In this document: in pieces, positions 990 to 29,941 of the stretch
How the letters are laid out: every line of letters begins with the position of its first letter
Numbering within the stretch: position 1 is the stretch's first letter
Assembly (NCBI RefSeq): GCF_003945235.1
Contig: NZ_RSDW01000001.1
Span: 960,001-992,000 of the forward strand
Direction of reading: 5' to 3'
Length of the DNA: 32,000 bases
Source: Edaphobacter aggregans
GTDB lineage: Bacteria; Acidobacteriota; Terriglobia; Terriglobales; Acidobacteriaceae
Notes under the pieces: generated by a model
What the model was told of the DNA's origin: nothing
The model's input: only the letters and a program-made list of their open reading frames with translations
Database searches by the model: none
Program-made: the position numbers and the translations under genes

Positions 990-1076
990 CAACACACCTC
1001 CCTCCAATCAACTCTTATTAGCCTTTATCTTTCTTATCACCGTTACGCCGTTAATCCGCGCAAATCCGCCGTCACT

Positions 1077-2018
1077 TCAAAGCCCCTTCCCTTTCCGAAA
1101 TTCCCGCACCACATCCCCCACATCCCGATGCTGCCCATCCACCGCATCATTCATTCCCTGCACCTCCTCAGCGCTGACCCTGCCCGCCAACCGATCCATA
1201 GCCACCTGAATCCCCGGATGCCGCTGCAACGAATCCGCCCTCACCAACGGCACCGCCTCATACGGAGGAAAGTAGTGCTTATCATCCTCCAGCGCCACAA
1301 ACCCCAGCGCCCGAATCGGCCCATCGGTCGAGTTCCCCGCCACCATATCCACCTGTTCGTTCTGCAGCGCCCGATAAAGCAGCCCCAGATCCATCGTCCG
1401 AGGAGCATCCTTGAACCGCAGCCCATACGTCGCCTCCAGCCCCCGCAACCCATCCGGCCGCTGCTCAAACTCATACCCCACCCCCAGCCGCCAATCCGGA
1501 GCATGCGCCACAGCATCCGATATCGTCCTCACCCCCAGCCGCCGAGCATCGTCCCCCCGAATCACCATCGCAAACGTATCCTCAAATCCAAGCCCCCGCC
1601 CCACCTTCACCCCATACCGCTGCCAGTACAGCCGTCGCACCGTCTGGAAGACCTGCGCCTCATCCCGCTGCCCCACCGGAGGCAACGGCTGCTTCAAAAT
1701 CGCCGTCAGCGCCGTCCCCGAATACTCCACATACCCATCAATCCGCCCACTCACCAGAGCCTGCTGACAGATGTAGCTCCCCGCCAGATAGAACCGCCGC
1801 TCCACCCTCTGCCCCGTCACCGCTTCAATCTCTTGAGCCAGCAACTCCCCCAGCACCACCTGCTCCGTAAAGTTCTTCGCCCCAATCGTCACCCGGCTCG
1901 ACCTCGGCGGAGCACACCCCAAAAAACAACCACCAAAAACCATCCCGCAAACCACACTTGCCAGACAAAAAACCGCTAAGTAACCACCGTTTTTCCCAGA
2001 AAATTGGCGAAATCTCAT
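1077..2018 (-). CDS. ABC transporter substrate-binding lipoprotein, glycine betaine/choline/osmoprotectant (OpuAC-fold) type
   Basis: Motifs match OpuAC/OsmX-like binders: IGAKNFTEQVVLGELLAQ, GRIDGYVEYSGTAL, YFPPYEAVPLVR. The lipobox FLGC follows a hydrophobic N-terminus. The ATG at 2018 overlaps the permease stop (ATGA at 2015-2018). The track start at 2051 is a GTG inside the permease gene. Confidence 0.85.
   Translation of the reverse strand: MRFRQFSGKNGGYLAVFCLASVVCGMVFGGCFLGCAPPRSSRVTIGAKNFTEQVVLGELLAQEIEAVTGQRVERRFYLAGSYICQQALVSGRIDGYVEYSGTALTAILKQPLPPVGQRDEAQVFQTVRRLYWQRYGVKVGRGLGFEDTFAMVIRGDDARRLGVRTISDAVAHAPDWRLGVGYEFEQRPDGLRGLEATYGLRFKDAPRTMDLGLLYRALQNEQVDMVAGNSTDGPIRALGFVALEDDKHYFPPYEAVPLVRADSLQRHPGIQVAMDRLAGRVSAEEVQGMNDAVDGQHRDVGDVVREFRKGKGL
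1921..2015 (-). repeat. partial copy (C) of the ~190-nt repeat family also found at 11590-11784 and 25287-25473
   Basis: Hand alignment to the reverse complement of copy B gives 29/40 identities for ccgcaaaccacacttgccagacaaaaaaccgctaagtaac versus ccgcaaaccacctttgccagactttttgccgcttattgac. This is followed by 12/13 for caccgtttttccc versus caccgtttttgcc. The copy overlaps the signal-peptide codons of the binding protein. Confidence 0.4.
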
Positions 2019-3393: not shown

Positions 3394-3420
3394 GCCCTCT
3401 ACTCTAACTTGTCACTGAAC

Positions 3421-4368
3421 TTACTGTGCAGTCTCCGGGGCAGGCTCAACCGCAGCAGGCTCGCTACCCGGCTGCCCCTTCACTCTGACAACCGTAATCT
3501 TCTCGAAGCCTTCCTTGAACGTAGGCGGCTTCAGACGCTCAGCCATCTTCTGCATCACTTCATCTGTGACAGCCCGCTCGCGCTTCCGATTCCGCTCCAT
3601 GCAGACAGCCAACGGCACATCAAAAAATACCGCCTGCACCTCATACCCGAAGCTCTTCGCCATCTTGATCCACTGTCTCCGCTCATGCGGCGAAAGGTTC
3701 GTGGCATCCACGTAGTTCCAAGGCATCTTGGCAATCAGTCTCGCCCGCAGCAGACTCCGCAGCGTCGAAAACACCAGTCCCTGATACCGCTGCTCCGTAA
3801 TGTCATCGAACAGGAGCGTCCGCAGCAGATCGCTCGACAGCGGAGTAACCCCCCGCCGCTTATACCAGGTCGTCTTCCCCGACCCTGGCAACCCGATCGC
3901 CAACACCACATATCCCTTAGGAGATTTAGCCGCAATCTGTTCCGCCGGCGGTGTAGCCAACGACTCAGGCTGCGTCTCCACCACCATCCTCGGCTCGACC
4001 GGCACACTCTCAGCAGCCACCGGCACGTCAGCAGGCTCAACCGCAGCCGCAACAGTCTCCGCAGCGACCGCAGGCTCAGCGGCACGAACCGGCGCAGCAT
4101 CGGGGTACGATGGTCTTAGGGGAGCAGGCTGGTTAGCAGGCAGCTCTTGCCCGCTCTTGCCCGTGGACTCCGAGTCATTCGGTCCACGTCTAGGGCGTCG
4201 TCTCATTTTTTCGCGCATCCAATCGCGCAGTTCGCGCATATGTCGCTTGTAACACAGCGTCGAATCCCCCCGCAAATCCACTGCACCTCGGTCGATACCC
4301 CGCGCAACTTTCCGCCTGAAAATTTGCGCCACCCCTGCCCCAGTGTTAGCATCCCGTCCTGATGGCAT
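3421..4368 (-). CDS. P-loop kinase of the AAA_33 / polynucleotide-kinase-like family with a Pro/Ala/Glu/Val-rich N-terminal extension
   Basis: GLPGSGKTT P-loop, then LSSD..R, then VDATN, then CMERNRKRER and KEGF, which is the order seen in Pnkp-type kinase domains. The 485-aa track ORF runs antisense into gap and cannot all be real. Candidate starts are ATG 4368 (GAGGA 9 nt upstream), ATG 4377 and ATG 4239. Confidence 0.7.
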   Translation of the reverse strand: MPSGRDANTGAGVAQIFRRKVARGIDRGAVDLRGDSTLCYKRHMRELRDWMREKMRRRPRRGPNDSESTGKSGQELPANQPAPLRPSYPDAAPVRAAEPAVAAETVAAAVEPADVPVAAESVPVEPRMVVETQPESLATPPAEQIAAKSPKGYVVLAIGLPGSGKTTWYKRRGVTPLSSDLLRTLLFDDITEQRYQGLVFSTLRSLLRARLIAKMPWNYVDATNLSPHERRQWIKMAKSFGYEVQAVFFDVPLAVCMERNRKRERAVTDEVMQKMAERLKPPTFKEGFEKITVVRVKGQPGSEPAAVEPAPETAQ

Positions 4369-4446
4369 GCACGCCATTCCTCTGCGTTCTACAATAGATA
4401 AAACGCATAAATACTTCGCACCACCACGACAGGAGCAACCGAAATC

Positions 4447-5451
<1,005 letters not shown>

Positions 5452-5466
5452 TTTCTTTCCAAGATG

Positions 5467-5500
5467 AAAGGGCGAGACGTTAGTCTCGCCCTTTCTCTTT
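5467..5500 (+). terminator. rho-independent terminator after gap
   Basis: Perfect 9-bp stem GGGCGAGAC (5470-5478) / GTCTCGCCC (5483-5491), loop GTTA, followed by TTTCTCTTTT. Confidence 0.75.
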
Positions 5501-5539
5501 TAAGAGAAAAGAAGCCAACCCACAAATCACCGCGGTGAA

Positions 5540-6724
5540 CTAAATCGCCACCACAAATGAGGCTTCACCATCGACAGCAGGAGCACCCTCCCCTATCGTC
5601 CGTGGCTCAAGACGACGCTCCTGAAGCCAGCCATGAACACCCAGTCCAATCATCAGTAAGACGACAGCCGAAAGCTCCGAAAATATTCGCACCTCCCGCA
5701 GAATCCCCACCACAGTCATGGCAGCGCCCCACAAGACAAAGACGGCAATCGACGTGACCCTGACCCGCACCGGAACAAACCTCCAGAACAGAATCGCTGC
5801 GACATACGCGAAGCCGAACACCGCCGACTCGGAGAGCCAAAACAGCGGATTGAACATCTGATGAACGTTCTCTGAAAACTGATTCTGCGTCATTCCCCCA
5901 CAGGACGAGCAGAGGTGCTGAATATAAGCGCGTTCCGCCAGACGGATCGCAACCACCAGCGCCCCCATCCCCGCGCACAACGACATCAGCCGAAGCAGAG
6001 AGTACCGTCCATACTGCAAGCCTAGAAAGATGAAGATCGCCACTGCCGCGGTTTCTTTGTTCAAAAAAGCCGGAATGAGAACCAGAGTGAAAGCGACAGG
6101 TCGCCCCTGATAGGCCAGGTAGACCAGCAAGGTAAAGAAGAAAAGAGCAGCAACATCGTATGGGTAATAGAGATTACGGTTCAGCACCAGCATCGTATCG
6201 AAGTAGGCAGCGTACCCCATGCCGAGTGCCATCCATTCGAACCCGCGGTGTGAGTCGATACTTCGCAGCAGACGACGCGCAACCAGAAGCGTCCCAAGCA
6301 TTGCGGCGAAGGTAAGCAAAACGACAAACCAATCTTCCTGCGACGTAAAAGGACGATTCAGGTAAGGCATGTGCAGCCTGGGAAAGCGCAGGTAAAGAGG
6401 GTGCAGAAGGGCCGTAGCCGCCTTCCACAAAAGAGCGGGCAGCATACGATACGCAAACGGCCCACCATCTCCCTTCAGGTCCTTATAGGTATGAAAGGGA
6501 ACCATTGCTGATGTCAAAGTGTTATAGGCAATCGCAAAGTGCGCGGACAGCAATACACAAACAACCGTCAGCAAAGGCTGGCGGCGAACACCCTGGACCT
6601 CGGTCATGTGCCGTAGTATACATTTGCAAAAATCTGCTCCAAGAGCGACCCTACTTGCTCGCCGATAGCCATATCTCGCCCCGACCATGACCACCCAGCC
6701 AGCACCTGGATTGGTGAAACTCAA
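5540..6724 (-). CDS. polytopic integral membrane protein, function unknown
   Basis: About 9-10 hydrophobic spans and no motif I can assign. The start is uncertain: TTG 6724 (TTGA overlap with the upstream stop), ATG 6688 or ATG 6607 (MTEVQGVRRQPLL then TM1). Confidence 0.6.
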   Translation of the reverse strand: MSFTNPGAGWVVMVGARYGYRRASRVALGADFCKCILRHMTEVQGVRRQPLLTVVCVLLSAHFAIAYNTLTSAMVPFHTYKDLKGDGGPFAYRMLPALLWKAATALLHPLYLRFPRLHMPYLNRPFTSQEDWFVVLLTFAAMLGTLLVARRLLRSIDSHRGFEWMALGMGYAAYFDTMLVLNRNLYYPYDVAALFFFTLLVYLAYQGRPVAFTLVLIPAFLNKETAAVAIFIFLGLQYGRYSLLRLMSLCAGMGALVVAIRLAERAYIQHLCSSCGGMTQNQFSENVHQMFNPLFWLSESAVFGFAYVAAILFWRFVPVRVRVTSIAVFVLWGAAMTVVGILREVRIFSELSAVVLLMIGLGVHGWLQERRLEPRTIGEGAPAVDGEASFVVAI

Positions 6725-7128
6725 TCGATCTGAGGTGGTGCGGGTGGAGGAGGTGGAGCATTCACTGCTCCGCCGGCTATCACATTTGATCTTCTAGTAT
6801 CTGCCGTCGCCTGCTCGCTCTCAAAGCTCTTTTGGATTCCCTTCGATACCACGTAAGACCCACCACTGATGCCCATCAGCCCCAATACTCCCGGAGGGAT
6901 ATCGGGAAACTTGCCGTCTCCGTTATAGAAGAAGAGATAGACCCACATCAGCACAATCACAAAGGTGAAGACCAGAAATTGAAACCGCGACATACTGGCA
7001 TCGCCATTTGTCTCGCTGACAAGTTTCGTCAAATCGATCTTCCCGGTCAGTATCTTCCAAAGGATGATTCCAACAAGCAGCCCTACAAAAACCACCAAGC
7101 CCCATGCTGTGATTACCTTGAGAGCCAT
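6721..7128 (-). CDS. small membrane protein (about 3 TM, proline-rich C-terminal tail), paralog of 7167-7490
   Basis: ATG with GGGGGA 5 nt upstream. Hydrophobic spans are present. The segment ILTGKIDLTKLVSETNGDASMSRFQFLVFTFVIVLMWVY aligns to the neighbouring ORF. Confidence 0.6.
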   Translation of the reverse strand: MALKVITAWGLVVFVGLLVGIILWKILTGKIDLTKLVSETNGDASMSRFQFLVFTFVIVLMWVYLFFYNGDGKFPDIPPGVLGLMGISGGSYVVSKGIQKSFESEQATADTRRSNVIAGGAVNAPPPPPAPPQID

Positions 7129-7166
7129 CTGTTCCCCCTGCCAAGCTTGAATTTAATTTCGACCAG

Positions 7167-7490
7167 TTATCGGCCCGCTGACTCGTTTAGAAACTTGCGA
7201 ACGACATAGAACACATTGCTCCCACCGAGGGCCGCGCCAAGCTCTGGAGGCACAGGAGCAAAGCCCTTCAATTGGTAGCATCGGTACGCGTAGTAAATTG
7301 CAATCACCAGCGTGGACAGAAATAGTTGAAGTCTAGCTGGACTGTAACTACCGTCGGGCCCCTTGGTGCTAAGCAAATAATTCGTATTAATGACCCCGTT
7401 AAGCAGCCGATAAGTAATAATGATCGCCAGTCCCCCCACAAAAAACCACAGTTCATAGCGCAGGACGACAAGCACAGGCACGTGTCTCAT
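7167..7490 (-). CDS. small membrane protein, paralog of 6721-7128
   Basis: ATG with a GGGAGG RBS. LLNGVINTNYLLSTKGPDGSYSPARLQLFLSTLVIAIYYAY and FAPVPPELGAALGGSNVFYVVRKF align with the 135-aa neighbour. Confidence 0.55.
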   Translation of the reverse strand: MRHVPVLVVLRYELWFFVGGLAIIITYRLLNGVINTNYLLSTKGPDGSYSPARLQLFLSTLVIAIYYAYRCYQLKGFAPVPPELGAALGGSNVFYVVRKFLNESAGR

Positions 7491-7724
7491 TTGCCTCCCA
7501 TCTTTGAATTCACTCGGAGGATGATACTCAGAAGGATCTGTTCTTCCGCTCCAGGTCTTCAGATGAATTGGACTGAACCGGCAAAACTCATACTGGGGCC
7601 GAATGGCAACGAATGTATGTTCCGTTCAAGAGAAAAGCAAGAACTTTAAACGAGAGTTCCTCCCAAACAATGTCGCTTTCAGCCAAACTGAAGACCGCTC
7701 TCAGAAAATCGGTAAACTAGCACC

Positions 7725-8099
7725 ATGACGCGCACCAACATCCCCGGCACATCTCCGTACGAACCCATCATCGGCTTCTCCCGAGCCGTCCGCATCGGCA
7801 ACCACATCCACGTCTCCGGCACCGGACCAGTCGGCGCAGACGACGGCGACATCGCCCAGCAGACCGAGCAATGCCTCTCCCTCATCGTCACCGCTCTCAA
7901 AAATGCTGGCTCCTCCATCGAGCACGTTTACCGCACCCGCATGTACCTCACCCATACTCAAGACTGGGAAGCCGCCGGCCGCGTCCACGGAAAATTCTTC
8001 TCCATCATCCGCCCTGCCGCCACCATGGTCGTCATCAAGGAACTCCTCAACCCCACCTGGCGCATAGAAATTGAGGCGGATGCCTGGATTCCCTACTAA
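7725..8099 (+). CDS. RidA/YjgF/UK114-family protein
   Basis: 124 aa. GFSRAVRIGNHIHVSGTGPV, VYRTRMYLT and a C-terminal RIEIEADA are typical of the family. Confidence 0.85.
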   Translation: MTRTNIPGTSPYEPIIGFSRAVRIGNHIHVSGTGPVGADDGDIAQQTEQCLSLIVTALKNAGSSIEHVYRTRMYLTHTQDWEAAGRVHGKFFSIIRPAATMVVIKELLNPTWRIEIEADAWIPY

Positions 8100-8110
8100 A
8101 ATCGGAACCG

Positions 8111-8599
8111 ATGCCAACACCTGCTGATCGTCGCGCCAACGTTCTGCTGGTCATCGCCGGTGCAGGCCTTCTCATCGGCACCCTCGACCTCCTCGACGCC
8201 ATCATCTACTACGGCACTCTAGGCGTCCCCCCCATCAAGATTCCCCAGTCCGTCGCCAGCGGCGTCCTCGGCCGCATCGCCTACGGCGACGGCATGGTCA
8301 CAGCAGCATTCGGTGTCGCGCTCCACTTCTTTATCGCCTTCGTCATCGCCGCGGTCTACATCCTTGCCAGCCGCAGTCTCCCGCTCTCGCGGCGCCCCAT
8401 TCTCTCCGGCGCCGCCTACGGAATCTGCGTCTATTTCTTCATGAACTACATCGTCCTTCCGCTCTCCAACGTCTATCCTCGCCCGCACTTCGCGACTGGC
8501 CCTTTTCTCAACGGAATCATCGGTCACATCCTGCTCATCGGAATCCCCGTCGCCCTCATCGCCCGCCGCTGTGTCGACTGCAAAAAGCCGCTCCTATGA
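8111..8599 (+). CDS. integral membrane protein, function unknown
   Basis: 162 aa with four hydrophobic spans. Its C3-rich codon usage matches neighbouring real plus-strand genes. Confidence 0.65.
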   Translation: MPTPADRRANVLLVIAGAGLLIGTLDLLDAIIYYGTLGVPPIKIPQSVASGVLGRIAYGDGMVTAAFGVALHFFIAFVIAAVYILASRSLPLSRRPILSGAAYGICVYFFMNYIVLPLSNVYPRPHFATGPFLNGIIGHILLIGIPVALIARRCVDCKKPLL

Positions 8600-8700
8600 T
8601 CGACGTTTCTCAACCGCTTCAAAATCCCTACCCATGCCTGCCCTTAACATTCATGCAAACCAATTAGACTGTTGTCACACATAACCTCGAAGGAAATCGA

Positions 8701-9909
8701 ATGTCCAAGCTGTCCATCCGCGATCTAGACCTCACCGACAAGCGCGTTCTCATCCGAGTCGACTTCAACGTCCCCATCAAGGATGGTGAGATCACCGACG
8801 ACACCCGCATCCGTGAGACCCTCCCCACCATCGAGTACGCTCTCCGCCGCAACGCCAAAGTCATCCTCTGCTCGCACCTCGGCCGTCCCAAGGGCAAGCC
8901 CGTCGCGACCATGAGCCTCCGTCCCATCGTCGATCACCTCCGTCACCTCCTCGACCACATCCTCGACGAAGACGAAAACGTAGCCTTCTCCCCCGACTGC
9001 GTAGGCGAGATCGCCACCGAGATGGCCAACAACCTCGAGTCCCGCCAGACCCTCCTCCTCGAAAACCTCCGCTTCCACCCCGAAGAAGAAGCCAACGACC
9101 CCGCCTTCGCCAAACAGCTCGCCTCGCTCTGCGATATCTACATCAACGATGCCTTTGGCAGCGCCCACCGCGCCCACGCCTCCACCGAAGGCATCACCCA
9201 CTTCGTCAAAGTCTCCGCCGCCGGCCTCCTCATGGAGAAAGAGCTCACCTACCTCGGCAAAGCTCTCAGCGAACCCGACAAGCCCTTCGTCGCCATCATC
9301 GGAGGAGCCAAAGTCTCCGACAAGATTCAGGTCATCGACAACCTCCTCGACAAAGCCGACGCCATCATCATTGGTGGAGGCATGGCTTACACCTTCCTCA
9401 ACGCACAGGGCCAGCACACTGGCAAATCTCTCGTCGAAACCGACAAGATCGACATAGCCAAAGCAGCCCTCGCCAAGGCCAAAGCCAAAGGCGTCCGCTT
9501 CCTTCTCCCCATCGACCACGTCCTCGCCGACGAGTTCGCCCCCGACGCGAACACTAAGATCTTCTCCGGTCACGGCGCATTCCCCGCAGAACTCATGGCC
9601 CTCGATATCGGCCCCAAATCCATCGCCCTCTTCGAAGACGAGATCGCCGACGCCCGCACCATCATCTGGAACGGCCCCATGGGCGTCTTCGAAATGCCCG
9701 CCTTCGCCTACGGCACCAACGCCATCGCCCACGCAGTAGCTCGCAACCGCGACGCCACCACCATCGTAGGCGGCGGAGACTCAGTTGCCGCAGTCCAGCA
9801 ATCCGGCGTAGCCGACCGCATCACCCACATCTCCACCGGAGGAGGAGCCAGCCTGGAATTCCTCGAAGGCAAAACCCTCCCCGGCGTAGCCGCATTAACA
9901 GACAAGTAG
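8701..9909 (+). CDS. pgk: phosphoglycerate kinase
   Basis: KRVLIRVDFNVP N-terminus, SHLGRPKG, and GGGDS..TGGGASLEFLEGK at the C-terminus. Confidence 0.97.
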   Translation: MSKLSIRDLDLTDKRVLIRVDFNVPIKDGEITDDTRIRETLPTIEYALRRNAKVILCSHLGRPKGKPVATMSLRPIVDHLRHLLDHILDEDENVAFSPDCVGEIATEMANNLESRQTLLLENLRFHPEEEANDPAFAKQLASLCDIYINDAFGSAHRAHASTEGITHFVKVSAAGLLMEKELTYLGKALSEPDKPFVAIIGGAKVSDKIQVIDNLLDKADAIIIGGGMAYTFLNAQGQHTGKSLVETDKIDIAKAALAKAKAKGVRFLLPIDHVLADEFAPDANTKIFSGHGAFPAELMALDIGPKSIALFEDEIADARTIIWNGPMGVFEMPAFAYGTNAIAHAVARNRDATTIVGGGDSVAAVQQSGVADRITHISTGGGASLEFLEGKTLPGVAALTDK

Positions 9910-9916
9910 AACAAGC

Positions 9917-9986
9917 CCGAGACCCGAGACCTGATACCCAATACCTAATACCCGATACCTGATACCTGATACCTGATACCCAAAAT
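9917..9986. repeat. heptanucleotide tandem array, 10 units, consensus CYGATAC
   Basis: Read directly: ccgagac ccgagac ctgatac ccaatac ctaatac ccgatac ctgatac ctgatac ctgatac ccaaaat. Confidence 0.9.
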
Positions 9987-10011
9987 CCGCCGGACACTCA
10001 AATCCGGCGGA
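9986..10011. terminator. hairpin between convergent pgk and the four-helix-bundle gene (possible bidirectional terminator)
   Basis: Perfect 9-bp stem TCCGCCGGA (9986-9994) / TCCGGCGGA (10003-10011) with an 8-nt loop. There is no clear U-tract, and it overlaps the last codons of the minus-strand ORF. Confidence 0.45.
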
Positions 10012-10345
10012 CAAACCCACTAAGCATCTTCTTCACAACAATCACGTCCTCACTCAATCTTGTAAATTCGGCCTCTGGCAGATATTCAAGGTCTCGCGCA
10101 AGCAAGAGTAGATACTCCAGTTCAGAAGCCGCAGCCTTCGATCGCTGAAGATACCCGCCGAACTCCACATCGCTGTCGACCCCGCAACCCTCTGCAATCC
10201 TCGTCGCTACAGCAGTCCCAGCTCTTCGAAGTTGGACCGTTAATCCAAATATCTCTTCCTTCGGCAATCGCTTTGTAGCACGATACACAGCCTGAACCAA
10301 CTCATGCGCTCTGCGCCAAACATCAAGCTCACGAAAATTCCTCAC
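9998..10345 (-). CDS. four-helix-bundle protein (23S rRNA intervening-sequence protein / Avd-like family)
   Basis: The N-terminus RNFRELDVWRRAHELVQAVYRATKRLPKEE..FGLTVQLRRAGTAVATRIAEG is the hallmark of this family. GTG start with AAGGAG 5 nt upstream. Confidence 0.85.
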   Translation of the reverse strand: MRNFRELDVWRRAHELVQAVYRATKRLPKEEIFGLTVQLRRAGTAVATRIAEGCGVDSDVEFGGYLQRSKAAASELEYLLLLARDLEYLPEAEFTRLSEDVIVVKKMLSGFVRRI

Positions 10346-10455
10346 TCGTACTCCTTCTCCGCAGTTATCTCTGATCGAGAAAATTCCTTACCGGCCACAA
10401 GAAGACTAATCCACTGGTAGAGCATCTCTTCGAAAGAGGAATACTGGTCCCTATC

Positions 10456-10698
10456 ATGCGCAAACCCCTTATCGCCGCAGTCGCCTTCATCGTGTCCGCC
10501 ATCTTCGCTCCGGTCTTGCTGTTGATTATTGTCATGTTGATCGGCTACGTATGGATGGCTCTTGCTCAACACAACCAGTCAGGGCTCGGTGCCGTAGCCG
10601 GTGGCATCTCGGAGGCTGCCGTACTTCTTGTGCCTATCCTCTGCGGCATCATCGGCACGCTCATCGTGCTCCACCGACTCGACCGTCGAGAGCCGTAG
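10456..10698 (+). CDS. small 2-TM membrane protein whose RBS and first 8 codons duplicate the tpiA start
   Basis: MRKPLIAA is followed by two clear hydrophobic helices. C3-rich codons resemble neighbouring plus-strand genes. No homolog recognised. Confidence 0.5.
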   Translation: MRKPLIAAVAFIVSAIFAPVLLLIIVMLIGYVWMALAQHNQSGLGAVAGGISEAAVLLVPILCGIIGTLIVLHRLDRREP

Positions 10699-10750
10699 CC
10701 CCAGGCGGTCTCTTCACAGCCCCGTTCGAAAATGGAATACTGATCCCCAC

Positions 10751-11509
10751 ATGCGCAAACCACTAATCGCCGCCAACTGGAAGATGTACAAGAACCCCAC
10801 CGAGTCCACCGCCTTCCTCACCCACTTCGCCCCGCTCATCAAGCATCACGACAAAGCCGAGATCGTCCTGTGCCCTTCGATGACCTCCCTCCCCGCGCTC
10901 GTAGATGCGGCCCGCGGTAAATCCATCTTCGTCGGCGCTCAGACCATGCACTGGCTCAACGAAGGCGCCTACACCGGCGAAACCTCCCCCACCATGCTCA
11001 CCGCCATCGGAGCCACCCACGTCCTCATCGGCCACTCCGAACGCCGCCAGTACTTCAACGAGACCGACACCACCGTCAACCTCAAACTCAAAGCCGCCCT
11101 CGCCCACGGCCTCATTCCCATCGTCTGCGTAGGTGAGCATCTCACCGAGCGCGAAGCCGGCCTCACCGCCAACGTCCTGGAACTACAGACCTCCCTGGCT
11201 CTCGAAGGAGTCGACCCCGCCGCGGCAGCACCTATCGTCTTTGCCTACGAGCCCGTCTGGGCAATCGGCACCGGCCGCACCGCCACCCCCGAGATCGCCG
11301 CAGACGCCCACAAGATCATCCGCGCCCAGATCGCCAAATCTCTCACACCTGAGCTGGCCGCTTCCATCCGAATCCTCTACGGCGGCTCCGTCAAACCCGA
11401 CAACGCACAGAGCCTCTGCTGCCTCGAAGACATCGACGGTGCACTCGTAGGAGGAGCCAGCCTCGACCCCACCTCCTTCGCCCAGATCGTCACCAACGCC
11501 ACCAACTAA
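10751..11509 (+). CDS. tpiA: triose-phosphate isomerase
   Basis: MRKPLIAANWKMYK, IGHSERRQYF, VCVGE, AYEPVWAIGTG. The track ORF starting at 10601 is an upstream extension overlapping the small ORF and is rejected. Confidence 0.95.
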   Translation: MRKPLIAANWKMYKNPTESTAFLTHFAPLIKHHDKAEIVLCPSMTSLPALVDAARGKSIFVGAQTMHWLNEGAYTGETSPTMLTAIGATHVLIGHSERRQYFNETDTTVNLKLKAALAHGLIPIVCVGEHLTEREAGLTANVLELQTSLALEGVDPAAAAPIVFAYEPVWAIGTGRTATPEIAADAHKIIRAQIAKSLTPELAASIRILYGGSVKPDNAQSLCCLEDIDGALVGGASLDPTSFAQIVTNATN

Positions 11510-11524
11510 ACCTCTGCCACAAAG

Positions 11525-11554
11525 GAAGGCCCGCCATCTTCAAGGCGGGCCTTC
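11525..11554 (+). terminator. stem-loop after tpiA
   Basis: Perfect 11-bp stem GAAGGCCCGCC / GGCGGGCCTTC with an 8-nt loop. The U-tract is weak. Confidence 0.55.
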
Positions 11555-11589
11555 AGTACGGCGCTCCGGAGTCATCCGCGTTCTCTATT

Positions 11590-11784
11590 CCGCAGCCAGA
11601 ATTTTCCACAGAAAAATTTTAAAAAGTGGCATTTTTCGAGTGCTAAAAAAGCGACCTCCAAAAAACCACGTTTCACCACCAATCCACCGCTAATTCACCA
11701 CCAAAAACCATCAGCAAGACACAGTTTTTCGCGAAAACACCCCAAAAAACACCTATTCACAACACCAAAAAACTGCGGGAAAAC
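11590..11784 (-). repeat. copy A of a ~190-nt intergenic repeat family (inverted relative to copy B)
   Basis: The reverse complement aligns along its length with 25287-25473. Shared blocks are ttctgtggaaa, cgaaaaa(c)t(t)gccac, ggtSaatWagcgg, gttttSgc(g)aaaaac and cggtaRKtttt. I counted about 58/90 identities in the central part by hand. Stop codons occur in all frames. Confidence 0.6.
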
Positions 11785-12363
11785 CTACCGCACCACCCCA
11801 ACCTGCTCCATCGGCCAATAAACAAAAGCCGCCTTCCCATAGATCAAATCCTGATCTACCGGCCCGAAATCACGACTATCACTCGAAATCGAACGATGGT
11901 CTCCCATCACAAAATACTCATGATCCGGCACCATCATCTCCGTTTGCGAGCGATCATCCTCAAACCGCGCCGGAACATATTTCTCCTCAATCGCCTTGCC
12001 ATTCACATAAACCTGCCCGCGATCGATCCGAAGATTATCCCCCGGCAACGCAATCACCCGCTTGATATAGCTCTTCGTGTGGTCATGCGGATAAAGAAAC
12101 ACCACCACATCCCCACGATGAATGTCCCCTACCTTGTAAGCCATCTTGTTGATGAACAGTCGGTCCTGATCCTCCAGCATCGGCAGCATACTCGTGCCTT
12201 CCACCCGCACTGGTTGGTAGAGAAAAACGATGATAAACGCCGACACCACCACCGAAACTACAAGATCCCGAAGCCACGAACGCACACCACCCTTATCCGC
12301 AGCCACCGGCTTCTTCTCAGACTCTGATACCGGCTCCTGCGTCTTCTGCTCGTCCATCTCCAC
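11785..12363 (-). CDS. lepB: signal peptidase I
   Basis: GTSMLPML (catalytic Ser box), YIKRVIALPGD (Lys box) and GDHRSISSDSRDFGPV. The start is GTG 12363 or ATG 12357. Confidence 0.92.
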   Translation of the reverse strand: MEMDEQKTQEPVSESEKKPVAADKGGVRSWLRDLVVSVVVSAFIIVFLYQPVRVEGTSMLPMLEDQDRLFINKMAYKVGDIHRGDVVVFLYPHDHTKSYIKRVIALPGDNLRIDRGQVYVNGKAIEEKYVPARFEDDRSQTEMMVPDHEYFVMGDHRSISSDSRDFGPVDQDLIYGKAAFVYWPMEQVGVVR

Positions 12364-12380
12364 GTCCTATTCCTCACCCA

Positions 12381-13424
12381 TTATTTAGACGCACCAGCCG
12401 CCTCACTGGCAACCGGCCCCGCCAAACCCAACCCAGGAATTAGTGTCTTCCCATCCAGCCCCGCCGGCGACCACGCCTCAACAATCGTCTTCGCCAGCCG
12501 CCCAATCAACACTTCTCCTTCATTATCAACCGTCCAGCTCTTATCCTCATTATCAAAAGTAAAAATCGACAGCACCATTGGCCCCGTCTTTCCCGCGACA
12601 ATCGCCACATCGGCTCGTACCGCGTTCAAACTACCCGTCTTACTGGCTATTCCCGATCCCGTCTCGCTAGAATCCAGCTTCTCCAAATACCGCGGAATCG
12701 TCTCCCGATAGAACTGATTCCGGAGCATCTTCAGCGCGACCTCACAGATTGCCGCATCCCCCGCAAGCATCGGCTCTCCCCGCTCCGCCAGTTGACACCG
12801 CCCAATCCGCTCCATCACCATCGCCATCTCTCGAGCAGTCGTCTTACCCAACCCAAACTTTGGCTGATCCGCAGGCATCGGTCCCGTAGCTGGCTTGCCG
12901 ATCTTCTTATACAGATGAGTATCCTTCAACCCCATCCACGCGATTCGCGCATTCACGGCATCCACCCCAAACCGGTCGATCGCCAAATTCGTAGCCGTGT
13001 TGTCGCTCACAATGACCATCATGGTCAGCACATCCTTCAGCGTCAACATCAGCGGAGTATCAAAAAACGTCAGCACCCCCGACCCGCTCACACCATCACC
13101 CTTGACCAGCGTAAGCTTCTCGTCCCACCGAGCTTTACCCGCCCGCACCTGCTCCATCGCTTCAAACAGAATCGTCAGCTTGATCACCGAAGCCGTCTGC
13201 ACCGGCCTGTCCGCATCGATCGCCACACTCTTGCCCGTGTTCAACTGTGTCGCATAAAGAGCCACTTTGCCATGGTGCTTCTCAACCAACGCAGCCAATT
13301 CCTGCTGTAATCCGGCATCGGCCACACCCGTCTGCTGAGCCCACGCTCCCCCAACGATCAACCCGAACAAGACGACACCCGCCGTCATAGCCCACCCAAC
13401 AAACCTGAATCTCATGTCATGCAT
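12381..13424 (-). CDS. class A beta-lactamase-related serine hydrolase, secreted
   Basis: Signal peptide, then the SxxK motif TASVIK, the SDN motif (VSDNTA) and the KTG motif (SKTGSL). Confidence 0.85.
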   Translation of the reverse strand: MHDMRFRFVGWAMTAGVVLFGLIVGGAWAQQTGVADAGLQQELAALVEKHHGKVALYATQLNTGKSVAIDADRPVQTASVIKLTILFEAMEQVRAGKARWDEKLTLVKGDGVSGSGVLTFFDTPLMLTLKDVLTMMVIVSDNTATNLAIDRFGVDAVNARIAWMGLKDTHLYKKIGKPATGPMPADQPKFGLGKTTAREMAMVMERIGRCQLAERGEPMLAGDAAICEVALKMLRNQFYRETIPRYLEKLDSSETGSGIASKTGSLNAVRADVAIVAGKTGPMVLSIFTFDNEDKSWTVDNEGEVLIGRLAKTIVEAWSPAGLDGKTLIPGLGLAGPVASEAAGASK

Positions 13425-13626
13425 CTTACAGGCGCTCTTCTATCGACGGTCAGTCAAACATTGAACCTCATCCGGCGTACAAAATCGACCTGCCTTAAAT
13501 TCGTATCGACAAGTATTTCAAAGTGAGGTATCCACTCCAATTCTGCTCAGTCAACATCAATGTTTTCTTTCCGCATCTAACAGCGATAGGACTAGAATTG
13601 CACATGTAGTGCAGCAGGATCTTCAT

Positions 13627-14598
13627 ATGGCAACCCTCACAATGATCGAGCAGGTCTCAACACCAAAACACGTCAGCAATCGAGGTCTGTCCGACCTCCA
13701 GGAACTCACCACCGAGACGGCAAACGCCGCCTCCGAAGGCCTCGATACCAAGTCTGCCATCGAGATCGCCCGCATCATCAGCCACGAAGACGCCAAGGTC
13801 GCCGCCGCCGTTAAGAAGGCGCTCCCCGAAATAGCCATCGTTATCGACACCGTCGCCCGATCCCTCCGTGATGGTGGCCGTCTCATCTACGTGGGCGCCG
13901 GCTCCAGCGGGCGCATCGCATCCCTCGACGCCTCCGAGTGTCCCCCGACCTTCTCCACCGCCCCCGCACAGGTTCAATACATCATGGCCGGCGGCCCCAA
14001 GGCACTTGCCTCCGCATCTGACGTCAACGAAGACTCCCCCGAACTCGGCCAGCGCGACATCGCACGACGGCGCCCCACCCGCAAAGACATCGTCATCGGC
14101 GTCTCCGCCAGCGGTCGCACCCCTTACGTCGTCGGCGCAGTCGAGTACGCACGCGCCCGTGGAGCCAAAACCGCCGCCGTCACCTGCAACCTCAACACCC
14201 CACTCGCTGACGTCTCCGACACAACCATCATCGCCGAGGTCGGCCCCGAGGTCATCTCCGGCAGCACACGCATGAAGTCCGCCAGCGCACAGAAGATGAT
14301 CCTCAACATGATCACCACCGGCGCCATGACTCGTCTCGGCTACGTTTACGACAACCTCATGGTCAACGTGCACATGAAGAACGCGAAGCTCGTCGAGCGC
14401 GGCATCCGTGTCCTCATGAAGGTCTGCGACATCGACCGCGACACCGCCATTCGCACCATCAAGTCCGCGGGCAAATCCATTCCCATCGCTGTTGTCATGC
14501 TCAAGGCCAACGTAGACAAGATGGAAGCCGTCCGCCGTCTCGCCAAGTCCGACGGCAACGTCCGCCTCGCCATTGACGACTCCAGGTTAGAGCTGTAG
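13627..14598 (+). CDS. murQ: N-acetylmuramic acid 6-phosphate etherase
   Basis: SIS-domain protein with TETANAASEGLD, YVGAGSSGRIA, GVSASGRTPYV and SGSTRMKSASAQKMILNMITT. The alternative GTG start at 13609 would add 6 aa. Confidence 0.92.
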   Translation: MATLTMIEQVSTPKHVSNRGLSDLQELTTETANAASEGLDTKSAIEIARIISHEDAKVAAAVKKALPEIAIVIDTVARSLRDGGRLIYVGAGSSGRIASLDASECPPTFSTAPAQVQYIMAGGPKALASASDVNEDSPELGQRDIARRRPTRKDIVIGVSASGRTPYVVGAVEYARARGAKTAAVTCNLNTPLADVSDTTIIAEVGPEVISGSTRMKSASAQKMILNMITTGAMTRLGYVYDNLMVNVHMKNAKLVERGIRVLMKVCDIDRDTAIRTIKSAGKSIPIAVVMLKANVDKMEAVRRLAKSDGNVRLAIDDSRLEL

Positions 14599-14980
14599 TC
14601 AGTATCTACCCATTTTTGCTGAAGCCCGCACCTCTTTTGCCAGATTCGACCGTCTATAGGTAAGTACGACCGAGTCGCCCATGAAAATTCGTAACATCAC
14701 ATATCACGATCTCCGGACAATGTTCTCCGCTTGCGCCGCCTTGGCCGCAGTGCTCTTTTGCGACGAACGAAGACACTTCACTATCGTCCCTATGCATCCT
14801 TCATCCTGGCTCGTTGCGACACAGCATCGCTGTGGCCTGCTCGCGATCGCAATGTTAATGTGGTTCGTTTGTGAATCAACAGTCAACATCTGCCTCGGCA
14901 TCACTGCGCTAGGACCTCATCGCAGCTAATGAGCCACGCTTTCGGCTGAGAATCATCCGCGAATATAGAAGCAACACCAT

Positions 14981-16062
14981 TCATCCTGCACTCAGACGAA
15001 CTCGCAGAGACTCCGGCGACCGAAAACCCGCGCCGCCGCGCCATTCTACAGGCTCCACCAACGCCGCCCCGGCAAACCGCTTCAACAACGATAGGTAATC
15101 GTAACGGCCGCCATACGAATCAGACTCGCGCCTACGCACGAGTGTGAACCAGCGCCTAAGGCAAAGTGCCCTGTGCTCCTACGCGTGACGTAGATCTCAT
15201 TCGCGTCAAAAAAATAGTTCGGGTCACGCTTCGCCGCAATAATCCTTAAAATGACGCGGTCTCCCTTGCGAATAAGAGTCCCGTTGAGGGTCACATCCTC
15301 TGTCGCTCTTCGGAACAGGACCCGCACCAGTCCGGCATACCGTAGCAACTCCTCGACCGCCTGTTCCATCAGTTCAGGATGCCGGTGCAGCAAGAGCCAC
15401 TCTTTCGGACGTTGCATGAGCGCAAACCACGCGTTTCCCAGGATGCAGGACATAGTCTGCGACAAAGCGACGAACCCTGAATCACGCAAGGCCGCAGGTC
15501 CCGAATGAAAGCACTTCTGAAGCGCTGCATTGGCAGCCTTCGCACAAGGCTGTAAAGCCCTATCGTACGGATCGGCCGAAGCCACCGATATCCGCTGGGC
15601 TTTTTCCTGAAGACGTTCAGCATCCTGCAGAGAAATGCCTGTTACCGTCGCCGCGAACGAAAGACAAAGCGGTCGCGCATAATCTCCTATCAGATCTACC
15701 GTCTCTTTATTCCAAGACAATCAGCCAGAGCATGTACCTCCAGTGTTAGTCTCTCGCGCCACACACGCAGATGAGTTGGAGTAAACGCCTCCCAACGTGT
15801 CCACCCGCACCTTCAAGCGGACGCTTTCGTCGGACGGCTCAGAAGCCTCGTTATGAGGCCCGCATGGAGAAAGAACAGCAGACCGAAAAGCCGCCAGGAC
15901 ATCCGCATGCCTACTTAGCACACATGCTCCGAGGCCGCCATCAAAGTAAGGAGCCTCGATCTCCGGAGGACAAGCAGAGTCAAATTGATCGCTGCTCCAG
16001 GCAGGTATCGAAGCTTCCTCTCGTCTCGCCAGCACACGCCTCCCGACAAAGGTGAGGCTCAC
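14981..16062 (-). pseudogene. cytochrome P450, disrupted by an in-frame TGA and a frameshift
   Basis: ExxR (EELLRY) and the heme loop FALGAGSHSCVGASL are present. An in-frame TGA at 15721-15723 splits the two track ORFs. After ...AAVTITYRC* the expected C-terminus LSLLKRFAGAALVEPVEWRGGAGFRSPESLRVRLSAG* continues in another frame to 14981, placing the frameshift near 15085-15100. At about 360 codons the gene is short for a P450. Confidence 0.7.
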
Positions 16063-16655
16063 AGCATAGCCAATCGTTCAGCGCGGATTGTCAGCAACTT
16101 GTAACGTTCTGGTCATCCGCCGCCACTATCCGCCTTCCTGTCGTTGGCGACGACAAAAGGTCGTTCTTCATTCACATGACACACATTCTGAACGGCAGCT
16201 ATCGATGTGACTTCTTCAAACTCGCGAACCAGACGAACTACTCGATTCTTTCCCGCACGTCATCCCCGCTTGGAAAGGTCTGTGTGAGCCGATAGTTTCG
16301 GCTCACGTAAGCCTGAATGGGGGAATTGACGAGGGGCCCAAGTCTAAACCCAGCCATCACCTTCAATTCCCATCGTGGGCGGCTTCATCATCGGGCGGGA
16401 GTCCGGATTTCAATCCACCGACAAGACCGACGCAACATCTTCGACGCCGTTTCATCGCGACTAAGATGGGCTAATCGCGCCACCGCTTAGCGACGGCTAC
16501 TGCTAAGGTGAAATCCTCCGAAGTACCCTCCGCTCTTGTACCGGTGAATTGCAAAAATCTGCACATATCGCCCAACTGCAACATTCTCCAGGAAACCGCG
16601 TCTATTCCCTCAGAAAGCGGCGACGCAAACCGAGCCGCGACAAGGAGCAGCACTC

Positions 16656-17069
16656 ATGAAGCGAATTCTCCTCTCAGCATCTCTCGCTCTCGCCCTCTCT
16701 GGCGGCCTCGCCTTCGCCCAATCGGCCACAACCCCTGCCCCTGAGGGAAAGCACTTCCACCATCACCGTCCTAACGCCCAGCAAGAGGCCGCCTGGCTCA
16801 GCACAAAACTCAATCTCTCTTCCGACCAAACTGCAAAGCTCGAACCCATACTCGCCGACCGCGACCAAAAGATGAGCGCATTGTGGAGCAACACCTCACT
16901 CAGCCCGGACGAAAAGAAACAGCAGATGCGCACCCTTCATCAGGATCTCAAGCAGCAACTCTCCACAGTCCTCACACCCGACCAAATTGAACAGATGAAG
17001 TCCCTGCATCACGGCCGTCGCGGTCCGCACCATCCTCAATCCCAGACCGCCCCGCCTTCGGGCCTCTAA
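16656..17069 (+). CDS. periplasmic Spy/CpxP-family (LTXXQ-motif) protein
   Basis: Signal peptide MKRILLSASLALALSGGLAFA. LTXXQ-like repeats LSSDQTAKL and LTPDQIEQM. His-rich ends. AAGGAG RBS. Confidence 0.75.
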   Translation: MKRILLSASLALALSGGLAFAQSATTPAPEGKHFHHHRPNAQQEAAWLSTKLNLSSDQTAKLEPILADRDQKMSALWSNTSLSPDEKKQQMRTLHQDLKQQLSTVLTPDQIEQMKSLHHGRRGPHHPQSQTAPPSGL

Positions 17070-17190
17070 CGAAACAGGGCAACAGAAGAAGCTGTCAAGC
17101 CCCAAACCCCGTAAGCCTATGCTAATAAACGGGATCGACATGGCATATGAATTACCTCCAATTCAGTAGAATAGAAACAGAAGAAATAAA

Positions 17191-17219
17191 GAAAGCCCCG
17201 GCCATCCGGGGTTTTCTTT
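17191..17219 (+). terminator. rho-independent terminator
   Basis: GAAAGCCCCGG / CCGGGGTTTTC stem (one G-U pair), loop CCAT, followed by TTTTCTTT. The A-tract upstream means it could act in both directions. Confidence 0.65.
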
Positions 17220-17237
17220 ATGGTCGTATAACTCGTT

Positions 17238-17326
17238 TGAATAGAATACTTTACATGTAAAATATCTATAATGAATACTTTACGGAAAAGTTATTCCATA
17301 AACTATTGAAAATGGATACTTTATGG
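17238..17326 (+). promoter_or_regulatory. AT-rich region with three direct repeats RGAATACTTTAY upstream of murA
   Basis: GAATACTTTAC at 17244-17254 and 17273-17283, and GGATACTTTAT at 17314-17324. Spacings are 29 and 41 bp. Confidence 0.5.
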
Positions 17327-17412
17327 GAACAGTACAGGGAAGGGGTACCAGTACAAAATTCAGAACCAGCCAAGCCACTCATTTCCACGCCAAATCCCCG
17401 TAAACTCTCATA

Positions 17413-18699
17413 ATGGATAAGTTTGTAGTACGCGGCGGTAATCCCCTTCTAGGCACCATCAAAGTCTCCGGAGCCAAAAACTCCGCGCTCCCCTGCATGG
17501 CCGCCGCCATCCTCACCGAGGACGAAGTCATCCTCGAAAACATCCCTCAAGTTAGGGATATTGAGACCGAACGCAAGCTCTTGGCCAGCATGGGAGCCGA
17601 GGTCGAATTAGGCTACGGCCGCGCCCAGCACCGCACCCGCATCCGCTGCGCCGTCCTCTCCGATCCGGTCGCCAAGTACGAGATCGTCAAGACCATGCGT
17701 GCCAGTTCCCTCGTCCTCGGGCCGCTCGTCGCCCGCACCGGCATCGCCCGAGTCGCCATGCCCGGCGGCTGCGCCATAGGAGGCCGCCCCATCGACCTCC
17801 ACATTAAGGGCCTCGAAGCCATGGGTGCCACTATCACCCAGGAGCACGGCTACCTTGAAGCCCGCACCGACCGCCTGAAGGGGGCCCACATCGTCTTCGA
17901 CAAAATCACCGTCACTGGCACCGAAGACCTCCTGATGGCCGCCACCCTGGCCGAAGGCGAAACCGTCTTCGAAAACTGCGCCCGCGAACCTGAGGTCACC
18001 GACCTCGCTGCTCTCCTCACCGCCATGGGAGCAAAGATTGAAGGCGCGGGCACGGGTACAATCCACGTTCAGGGCGTGAGCAAGCTGCACGGTGCTCGCC
18101 ACCGCATAAACCCCGACCGCATCGAAGCCGGCACCTTCCTCATCGCCGGAGCCATCACCGGCGGCGACCTCAACGTCGACTGCTGCGAGCCAAAGCACCT
18201 CGGTGCCGTCATCTCCAAACTGGAGCAGTGTGGCGTCAAGCTCGACGTCGGCACCGACAACATCCGTGTCCGCTCCGGCGACGCAGCAGGTCTCAAGGCC
18301 TCCGACATCTCCACCGAAGAGTACCCCGGCTTCCCCACTGACATGCAGGCCCAGTTCATGGCTCTGGCCACCCAGGCCGAAGGCACCACCACCGTCACCG
18401 AAAACATCTTCGAAAATCGCTTCATGCACGTCCAGGAACTTATCCGCATGGGCGCAAACATCACCGTTGCAGGCCGCACCGCCACCGTCCGCGGCAAGAC
18501 ACCCCTCCAGTCGGCGGCGGTCATGTGCTCTGACCTCCGCGCCTCTGCTTCCCTCGTCCTCGCCGCCCTAGTGGCTGACGGAGAGACCATTCTCGATCGT
18601 GTCTACCACCTCGATCGAGGCTACGAACACTTCGAAGAGAAGCTCCGAGGGGTAGGCGCCCAGATCCGCCGCATGGGAGACGTCTTCGGCAAGAAGTAA
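17413..18699 (+). CDS. murA: UDP-N-acetylglucosamine 1-carboxyvinyltransferase
   Basis: [27 protein letters not shown], the active-site Cys loop [14 protein letters not shown], and a C-terminal [17 protein letters not shown]. Confidence 0.97.
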
Positions 18700-18709
18700 T
18701 TTATTTCCG

Positions 18710-19190
18710 TTAAAACGCTGCAAGCTCTTTGCGATATAAGAACGCATCCAGTCCCGCGACACGATAGAATCGGCGCCGCACCCCATGCCGGCTATACCCC
18801 AGACGCTCGTAAAAGCGGATCGCACCCTCATTCCCCGTAAATACGTGCAGCGCCATTTGCTGCACACCCATCGCCCCCGCGCGACTCTCTGCTTCCAGCA
18901 TCAACCTCGACGCAACACCTTCCCGTCGATACGTCTCCGCGACATCCAGAGTCACCACATATCCTTGCAACCCGGTCGTCCCGAAATCGAGATGGACGAT
19001 TACAAATCCAGTGATGCCGCCGCCACCTCTCTCGGCGATCAGACAGATTGCATTTCGCGCCTCCGCGAACTCCTGCATCGACTTCCGACCAAAATCGAAA
19101 TGCCGCCGCAAAACAATCCTCGTCCAGCCGGTAGATGGCCTCCAGGTCAGTCCGGCGATACTCCCGAAGAACAGTCTCCCCTAGGCTCAT
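18710..19190 (-). pseudogene. GNAT-family N-acetyltransferase interrupted by a 1-nt frameshift (pseudogene or homopolymer sequencing error)
   Basis: The N-terminal part MSLGETVLREYRRTDLEAIYRLDEDCFAAAFRF is in the frame of track ORF 18828-19298. The rest, GRKSMQEFAEARNAICLIAE...RREGVASRL...FYERLGY, is in the frame of ORF 18710-19111. The switch maps to one of two A4 runs, 19091-19094 or 19110-19113. Confidence 0.7.
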
Positions 19191-19440
19191 CCTCACCAGC
19201 ATAGTCTGCCTGATAAAGGGTCCCTCGCCCAGCCTTGCGGAGCGGGTTTGCATCGGTATGGGTGCCCCACGTGGTACCGTTTTGTGCAAAGTATTCAATA
19301 GAAATGGCTTATGGGTGGACTTCTATGTTTTGTGAGAAGGAAAGTCTCTCGATACAAGGGTCCAGCGGGAATAGTGCCTGTAAAGTATTGATCTAAAATA
19401 CCTTGACGGATACCACCCTGACCAAGTTTTGGACTTAAAA

Positions 19441-24070: not shown

Positions 24071-24079
24071 CAGGCCGTT

Positions 24080-25285: not shown

Positions 25286-25286
25286 G

Positions 25287-25473
25287 GCGGTAATTTTTGC
25301 GCGTTTTTTTCTGTGTGGTGTTTCTTCGTTTTTGCTGGGGGTTTTGGCAAAAACGGTGACAGAATGTGGTGGTTTTGTGGTCAATAAGCGGCAAAAAGTC
25401 TGGCAAAGGTGGTTTGCGGACGGTCACTTTCCGGCGACGAAAAACTTGCCACCTGTTCTGTGGAAATCTGAAA
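25287..25473 (+). repeat. copy B of the ~190-nt intergenic repeat family
   Basis: It fills the entire gap between the MFS stop and the nadK stop. It aligns to the reverse complement of 11590-11784 and partly to 1943-2000. Confidence 0.6.
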
Positions 25474-26328: not shown

Positions 26329-26385
26329 TGATGTCTAGTGTAACGGCTGGGATGGGAAGATCGGTGACGCCAGCTCGCTGCTTTC

Positions 26386-29852: not shown

Positions 29853-29878
29853 ACAGCTCACAAGAACCATGACAGTTG

Positions 29879-29911: not shown

Positions 29912-29941
29912 GTTGCGGTGGATTTCGCTGACTCGTTGCTA

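Follow-up and report, generated by a model that had tools for sequence, protein, structure and literature searches.

A dispersed, strand-asymmetric repeat family at gene 3′ ends in Edaphobacter-like Acidobacteriaceae

The described systems closest to the element considered here are the BIME/RIP sequences of E. coli, dispersed non-coding modules of 100–200 bp that lie at the 3′ ends of transcription units and are bound by IHF and gyrase. Close to it as well are the MITEs and ERIC/IRU-type repeats, intergenic sequences of 100–200 bp that hold no open reading frame and show presence/absence polymorphism and truncated copies. Rickettsia palindromic elements (RPE) and mycobacterial MIRU are translated where a copy comes to lie inside a frame or at a stop/start junction. 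Gyrase sites in E. coli carry a phased 10-bp variation in G/C over about 130 bp, and BIME-2 elements, which are intergenic and downstream of transcription units, are strong gyrase sites (PMC6379681). Hardly any non-coding elements have been characterised in Acidobacteria, a phylum of bacteria abundant in soil, and the family that we describe from a 32-kb stretch of DNA (the window, by which we mean the whole stretch that was analysed) is a new one within this known theme of dispersed intergenic repeats, in a poorly studied phylum; we found no description of such an element in the literature searched on Acidobacteria.

The element resembles BIME/RIP and the MITEs and ERIC/IRU-type repeats in the respects just listed. 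It differs from BIME/RIP in its phylum, its low copy number (eight loci from all sources), its strand asymmetry (one strand rich in C and A, the other in G and T) and a 39-bp core made of direct CCRC boxes, and it lacks the REP palindrome, a GC-rich imperfect palindrome of 20–40 nt; no hairpin is conserved across the family, and the short hairpins present differ by subfamily. In contrast to MITEs and ERIC/IRU-type repeats it has neither terminal inverted repeats nor a long imperfect palindrome, shows no clear target-site duplication, and has no relative with a transposase in view here. The lack of palindrome and terminal repeats, together with strong strand asymmetry, direct boxes at helical spacing and a predicted bend, sets it apart from the classic dispersed repeats.

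Three copies lie in the window (Table 1), and an nhmmer profile of the family finds no fourth in its 32 kb. Copies A and B had been read from the letters alone as inverted, alignable end to end and 60–65 percent identical by hand estimate. Blastn aligns A (plus strand) with reverse-complemented B at 63.7% identity over 182 nt (E=1.3e-7), nhmmer gives E=3e-8, and all five of the conserved islands listed in that sequence-only reading are present in both copies. Another explanation for such likeness, chance resemblance between two G/T-rich low-complexity spacers, draws on the biased composition of A and B and the strong skew of the left half of the window, but is already refuted: the A/B local alignment scores 35 against 12.5 ± 2.1 (maximum 24) for 2000 dinucleotide shuffles of B (z=11), the controls in wrong orientation (same strand, and reversed) reach 9 and 15, family profile E-values reach 1e-45, and a pattern of 21 specified bases recurs in unrelated contigs.

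Table 1. Coordinates of the element and its parts in the window, followed by the eight independent loci of the family
Feature	Position	Strand	Context or remark
Copy A, full length	11590..11784	C/A-rich strand = +	Between tpiA terminator and lepB stop codon (11785-11787)
Copy B, full length	25286..25473	C/A-rich strand = -	Between MFS stop (25283-25285) and nadK stop (25474-25476)
Copy C, partial (core + G/T-rich flank)	~1915..2018	C/A-rich strand = +	
Core of A	11663..11701	+	Four CCRC boxes on the same strand, spaced by one helical turn
Core of B	25377..25415	-	39 bp
Core of C	1949..1987	+	39 bp
Island TTTTCCACAGAA	11602..11613	+	Copy A
Island TTTCCACAGAA	25456..25466	-	Copy B
Island GTGGCA + TTTTTCG	11626..11638	+	Likeness to sigma-54 -24 element; -12 GC missing from most copies
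T5/A5 palindrome GTTTTTCGCGAAAAC	11724..11738	+	Centre of the window's highest predicted curvature (peak 11734)
T5/A5 palindrome CGTTTTTGC-N11-GCAAAAACG	25327..25355	-	Second-highest predicted curvature peak (25339)
Locus tpiA/lepB			Representative A
Locus nadK/MFS			Representative B
Locus opu permease/OpuAC			Representative C
Locus GH35/MFS			Representative L021
Locus MFS/tyrosine recombinase			Representative L022 group
Locus queA/polA			Representatives L006, L044
Locus at 3′ end of DHQase-shikimate dehydrogenase gene			Representative L020a
Locus gltB/Hpt			Representative L057

By Pfam, A lies between a triosephosphate isomerase domain (TIM, tpiA), which runs to 11509, and a signal peptidase I gene on the minus strand (lepB), and B between an MFS transporter and an NAD kinase gene on the minus strand. 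The copies had been said to fill their gaps almost exactly. This holds exactly for B, which is the entire gap between the two stop codons. At A, tpiA is followed by a GC-rich terminator hairpin (11528-11553), some 40 nt downstream of this hairpin lie outside the repeat family, and family sequence begins at about 11597 and reaches the lepB stop. One of the islands in copy A, CGGTAR, consists of the last Arg codon and the stop codon of lepB, and is also present in relatives that lack the element.

Further copies came from two pattern scans and the nhmmer profile. The exact core pattern (the 21 specified bases) recurs at three loci of the genome collection; its scan over one genome per species hit two Acidobacteriaceae/Edaphobacter MAGs and gave one chance match. 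A looser pattern of 19 bases, scanned in soil metagenome contigs, gave about 14 true copies, and against the profile all real copies score between E=1e-31 and 1e-45. In all, there are about 20 copies beyond A–C, at eight independent loci when orthologs are counted once, and all are in Edaphobacter-like Acidobacteriaceae; plasmid and phage collections gave no match to the element. Orthologs of B were found at L010, L014, L036 and L001-3 (we number related loci with an L) and one of C at L005. Metagenome Ga0209060 holds a contig that shares about 98% identity with the window and carries both A and B (L032, L010), as well as four further contigs with other copies. The repeats of the family measure 130–195 bp, and truncated copies (the L022 group, C and L057) keep the core; paralogs are 58–73% identical, with one pair at 80%, and orthologs about 81% or more. 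By the Pfam matches of the flanking genes, the gap is convergent at five of the eight loci. The window copies thus belong, almost certainly, to a real, lineage-restricted family dispersed through a sub-clade of Edaphobacter-like Acidobacteriaceae, and the earlier proposal of a genuine, uncharacterised repeat found mostly in 3′-3′ gaps, with further copies to be sought in related genomes, is borne out. One candidate was dropped as spurious: L020b (L020 2472-2538) matches the profile weakly (E=1.7e-5) with about 31 of 40 positions identical to the core, and lies inside a PgeF/YfiH-like (Cu-oxidase_4) ORF.

The 39-bp core has the consensus CAAACCAC..CCAsAC..CCGCT.A.T.ACCAC on the C/A strand, its boxes being AAACCAC, CCAsAC, CCGCT and ACCAC, with five or six boxes in some copies; A, B and C have in common the pattern AAACCAC-N2-TT-N13-CCGCTnAnTnACCAC. 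Among 14 aligned copies the invariant columns are concentrated in the core, in TTTCCACAGAA and in GTGGCA. Core positions are invariant even among paralogs that are only 58–70% identical overall, and TTTCCACAGAA is unchanged in seven of eight full-length copies, L044 having one substitution (TTTCCACAAAA). Between the window and L032 the core of A is 100% identical and all ten differences are peripheral, outside an 88-nt core block, the periphery of A evolving at about the neutral rate. From the invariant islands and the confinement of these differences it follows that the periphery drifts roughly neutrally while the islands are held. Copy B is 81% identical to its orthologs L014 and L036, and in the same comparison the adjacent MFS gene shows 87/92/63% identity at codon positions 1/2/3. 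We infer that the selected part of the element is the 39-bp core, the conservation of which could serve the element's own mobility and not the host.

Several properties of the sequence follow the helical repeat. CCRC boxes in the core are about 10.7 bp apart (range 9–12 bp), with spacings of 9, 12, 11, 11 and 10 nt when neighbouring boxes are included and multiples further out; at such a spacing the boxes lie on one face of the helix. On the G/T strand the autocorrelation of GG peaks at lags 11, 21, 32 and 43, A/T tracts are phased across the whole unit, and the two indels that separate subfamilies are of 10 nt each. The best G+C period is 10.5–11.25 bp in 10 of the 10 copies examined, which are homologous and so do not count as ten independent observations. 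The periodicity could be a relic of an origin from 11-nt tandem repeats; TRF shows just a weak 11-nt x3 array in the core of A (11672-11704), and we do not retain a tandem-repeat origin.

Predicted curvature, computed with a wedge model, ranks A, B and C first, second and third in the 32-kb window, with peaks of 61, 58 and 52 degrees per 31 bp (that of C at ~1990), where the background averages 15 and has its 99th percentile at 40. These values are model predictions whose absolute angles are approximate; what counts are the ranks, and they do not change when an AA/TT-only wedge is used at 10.5, 10.75 or 11.0 bp/turn. At six other loci, too, no curvature peak is higher than that of the element. 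The observed peaks exceed 94–100% of dinucleotide shuffles. AT content does not explain the ranking: C stands at only the 67th AT percentile, and the spot with the highest AT content in the window is not among the top peaks.

We tentatively favour, at somewhat less than even odds, a dispersed and formerly mobile DNA module that would sit at gene 3′ ends and act there as bent double-stranded DNA to which a protein binds. The core would lie within some 190 bp in which G+C content and A/T tracts keep phase with the helical repeat, the resulting DNA would be strongly bent or anisotropically bendable, and such DNA would be an expected substrate for a protein that binds cooperatively or wraps DNA. 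The protein in question might be a nucleoid-associated protein, gyrase, or the recombinase by which the element was once moved. Between convergent genes the element might serve as a topological or architectural buffer, by analogy with BIME/RIP of E. coli. Its phased G/C variation, with a period of roughly 10 bp, is of the kind described for strong gyrase sites, gyrase action on it being proposed by analogy. Helically phased boxes and predicted curvature agree with the protein-binding or architectural role that had been among the candidates at the outset. Should a protein indeed bind, the family would offer a handle on nucleoid and topological organisation at converging transcription units in Acidobacteria.

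How the copies came to their places is best seen from the same gaps in relatives. The distance from lepB to tpiA is 3 nt in Edaphobacter bradus and 1 nt in L050, and in L052, whose LepB is 93% identical, the gap is 65 nt with only a bidirectional terminator inside; other relatives hold unrelated inserts there, and over nine related lepB/tpiA loci (about 100 kb in total) the family profile finds no copy. At nadK, L057 keeps the synteny of the window (MFS 78% identical) with REP-like hairpins in place of B, and L059 has a 22-nt gap without B, while L057 carries a core-only copy immediately 3′ of the gltB stop codon. The opu junction of close relatives is empty of the element. Elements at L021 and L006 are 80% identical in unrelated flanks. 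Empty gaps in relatives and copies elsewhere mean that copies were gained at different places in different lineages, and these comparisons of gene order and gap content show the copies to be insertions and not ancient conserved spacers. The element is also dispensable, since close relatives do without it at the same gaps, and this counts against the bent-DNA reading. Filled and empty sites provide a natural experiment on the effect of a 190-bp spacer where stop codons are otherwise 1–3 nt apart. Copies lie directly after stop codons, mostly between convergent genes, which is where an insertion does least harm.

Insertion of this kind raises the strongest of the alternatives, a purely selfish, non-autonomous mobile element with a MITE- or REP-like lifestyle and no host function, in which the core and the TTTCCACAGAA island would be the sites needed by a recombinase or transposase acting in trans, and copies would pile up in 3′-3′ gaps only because insertions are tolerated there. 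The polymorphism between related genomes is what is expected of MITEs, and a decayed MITE-like insertion, one of the candidates of the sequence-only reading, fits the empty sites; similar copies at unrelated loci, truncated copies, the narrow distribution, the near-neutral periphery of A and the prevalence of convergent gaps all speak for it too. Against this, the ends are unlike those of a MITE: the best end-to-end match of the termini is 7/11 (AATTTCCACAG vs AATTTGCGCGC), with 10/12 in copy A only, which agrees with the earlier impression that there are no convincing terminal inverted repeats. The single filled/empty pair, A against the L052 site, shows no clear target duplication, the left junction being blurred by a GCGGTA microhomology common to the element end and the lepB end. 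None of the loci examined has a transposase, and no near-identical paralogs were seen, the closest pair being 80% identical. Mobility alone also leaves unexplained why orthologs are kept well above the identity of third codon positions. As a complete account we regard the selfish element as somewhat unlikely; it is in any case compatible with the bent-DNA reading, the two not being exclusive.

At the opposite end is a device retained by the host, in which phased CCAC boxes in bent DNA would nucleate an oligomerising or wrapping protein at the gene 3′ ends of Acidobacteria, the unit spreading to new 3′ ends and being open to recruitment as coding sequence, as in copy C. Candidates for such a device would be a dedicated topoisomerase or nucleoid-protein loading site, or a titration cluster of the DnaA type. 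We consider this stronger variant unlikely. A DnaA-box cluster resembling datA or DARS was rejected, each element having one box (TTTTCCACA/ATTTCCACA) within 1 mismatch of TTATCCACA and its other CCACA boxes being 3–4 mismatches away; over the whole window there are 8 matches with at most 1 mismatch where 4.2 are expected, a number reached by 5 of 100 shuffles. A parS/NBS-like site was also set aside, the TTTC-N4-GAAA arms occurring in one subfamily only.

The element has a consistent polarity. At all eight loci its G/T-rich strand starts 0–26 nt past the stop codon of a gene read in sense from this strand, in most cases with a run of T6–7, so that a stop codon is abutted in every case, an extragenic 3′-end position like that of REP/BIME. 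At four loci (A, L057 and the two co-directional ones) the element's other end is far from gene ends. Gap-filling as such is expected of any tolerated insertion, given how tiny the convergent gaps of relatives are. A pure function of double-stranded DNA needs neither strand asymmetry nor stop-codon polarity, and the asymmetry with the fixed T6–7 end beside the stop codon hints at a polarity set at the RNA level or by the mechanism of insertion.

A 3′-end module acting in RNA would explain asymmetry and polarity better than the DNA model does. Here the C/A strand would be an idealised Rho-loading (rut) site, poor in G, rich in C and unstructured, that keeps one of the two convergent transcripts from extending antisense into the neighbouring gene, and the G/T strand would be a 3′ UTR beginning at the stop codon of lepB, MFS, queA and others. 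The C/A strand has a C/G ratio of 1.9–5.5, a CC about every 11 nt and little predicted structure; by composition, and as a prediction only, it provides the roughly 80-nt unstructured stretch with C in excess of G and spaced C residues, downstream of a gene, by which rut sites are recognised. In both co-directional contexts (queA->polA, and opu permease->OpuAC) the sense strand is the non-rut strand. However, a rut site needs a composition and not an invariant 39-nt sequence, and rut sites, unlike this element, are neither sequence families with invariant cores nor inserted as units. The tpiA gene has its own hairpin terminator upstream of A, and the 10-nt indels, the strand-independent G+C periodicity and the curvature all point to DNA. 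On balance the RNA-level module appears quite unlikely.

Orientation had also been thought to follow the local strand skew. This is true of A and C, but B is neutral (flanks -0.07/+0.01), and L021 and L020a go against the rule: there the C/A-rich side of the element belongs to a strand with uniform excess of G across 9–13 kb. The same two loci count against an IS200/IS605-derived PATE, in which orientation would be tied to replication direction and similar subterminal hairpins would lie at both ends; here the end hairpins are unlike each other. In the window the GC skew is -0.2 to -0.45 over 1-19000 regardless of gene strand and about 0 or positive over 24000-32000; neither dnaA, dnaN nor parAB is present in the window, so that the switch is not obviously an origin, and we rejected a replication origin there. 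Related loci have equally strong skew, L022 for instance being at -0.3 to -0.45 throughout.

Small RNAs were likewise among the initial candidates, and this proposal fared poorly. Rfam gives no match at gathering threshold in the window or in four related loci, and at E<=10 over A and B only noise (E>0.1, under 20 bits); no tRNA or tmRNA was found. No sigma-70-like promoter and no terminator lies inside A or B on either strand. The RNAalifold consensus is -0.09 kcal/mol for the C/A strand and -2.8 kcal/mol for the G/T strand, single-sequence folding z-scores are -1.0 to -1.8, and the best G/T-strand structure has a covariation score of 0.188 against 0.173 ± 0.019 for shuffles, 100 of 500 of which reach it. 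Folding this weak, with covariation no better than in shuffles, shows that the element is no structured RNA.

A more specific version would have sibling small RNAs made from the C/A-rich strand under a sigma-54-type -24/-12 promoter (TGGCAYG-N4-TnGn), with the core as seed, as in Qrr. The family is like Qrr-type RNAs in having several paralogous copies, an invariant internal block and a TGGCA motif upstream: TGGCA(Y)G stands at a fixed distance from the core in 8 of 8 full-length copies, and the GG-N10-G spacing is retained, with GG-N10-GC in L036 and L020a. It is unlike them in that the -12 element is not conserved and there is neither a terminator nor a conserved stem-loop. The essential -12 GC is present in those two of the eight copies only, the spacing in A is altered, and the L022 group, C and L057 keep the core without any TGGCA motif. 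With no sigma-70 promoter, Rfam family or conserved structure either, sigma-54 RNAs are a very improbable explanation.

That neither full-length copy has an open frame had been noted at the outset, and no conserved ORF was found in A or B. A C/A-strand frame ('KPHLPHFLPL') and a hydrophobic frame on the G/T strand look open or similar between copies as an effect of composition. A protein-coding gene was rejected, copy C excepted, on three grounds: stop positions differ between copies, ortholog spacers of 64/65/66 nt break the frame, and the variable positions of the core are not third positions.

Copy C is the case where the family does appear to be translated. On the minus strand at this copy the permease gene ends and that for OpuAC begins within a shared ATGA, and the next ~100 nt, which include the family core, encode MRFRQFSGKNGGYLAVFCLASVVCGMVFGGCFLGC, after which comes APPRSSRV, the conserved N-terminus of the mature protein; the region is the signal peptide/lipobox region of an OpuAC-type binding protein. 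L005, the ortholog of copy C, keeps the reading frame; in E. bradus the DNA at the OpuAC start is unrelated and the signal peptide is another one. Because translation of G/T-rich DNA naturally yields F, V, L, G, C and W, a copy that lands at a stop/start junction is able to act as a signal peptide. Judging from these reading frames, copy C is co-opted as the OpuAC lipoprotein signal peptide, the only coding case of the eight loci and an example of repeat exaptation. Its place at the ATGA overlap recalls RPE and MIRU, with the difference that RPEs are palindromic and MIRUs tandem units of 46–101 bp, and that here one locus of eight is coding.

Several other features were seen in the window and at related loci. 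A separate REP-like family consists of GC-rich hairpins with the loop CT(A/G)AAG (e.g. GGGGCTTTAGCCCC); it occurs 12 times in 20 kb of L057 (3940-4080, 10880-11100 and elsewhere), at L004 7790-7860, and beside the element in L006, L012, L027, L030 and L036, often abutting it. These hairpins are absent from the window and have no Rfam match. The lepB/tpiA gap has been filled repeatedly by different inserts among relatives; at L053 2412-2552 (also L054-L056) it holds a called 46-aa ORF, with runs rich in CAC/CAT on the strand shown. In the window a 7/14/28-nt tandem repeat of the ACCTGAT type (9916-9992) lies between pgk and tpiA, and within 2-14.5 kb only the roughly 500 nt around it fail to align to the 98%-identical L032. 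AT-rich inverted repeats at 17228-17289 and 19280-19312 flank an EPSP-synthase-family (murA-like) gene and a 139-aa ORF, and adjoin the most AT-rich spot of the window (~17145, 68% AT). Finally, an ORF on the minus strand at 15082-15720 has a match to the cytochrome P450 profile that is confined to the C-terminal third of this profile (322-419 of 462), and may be a gene fragment or pseudogene.
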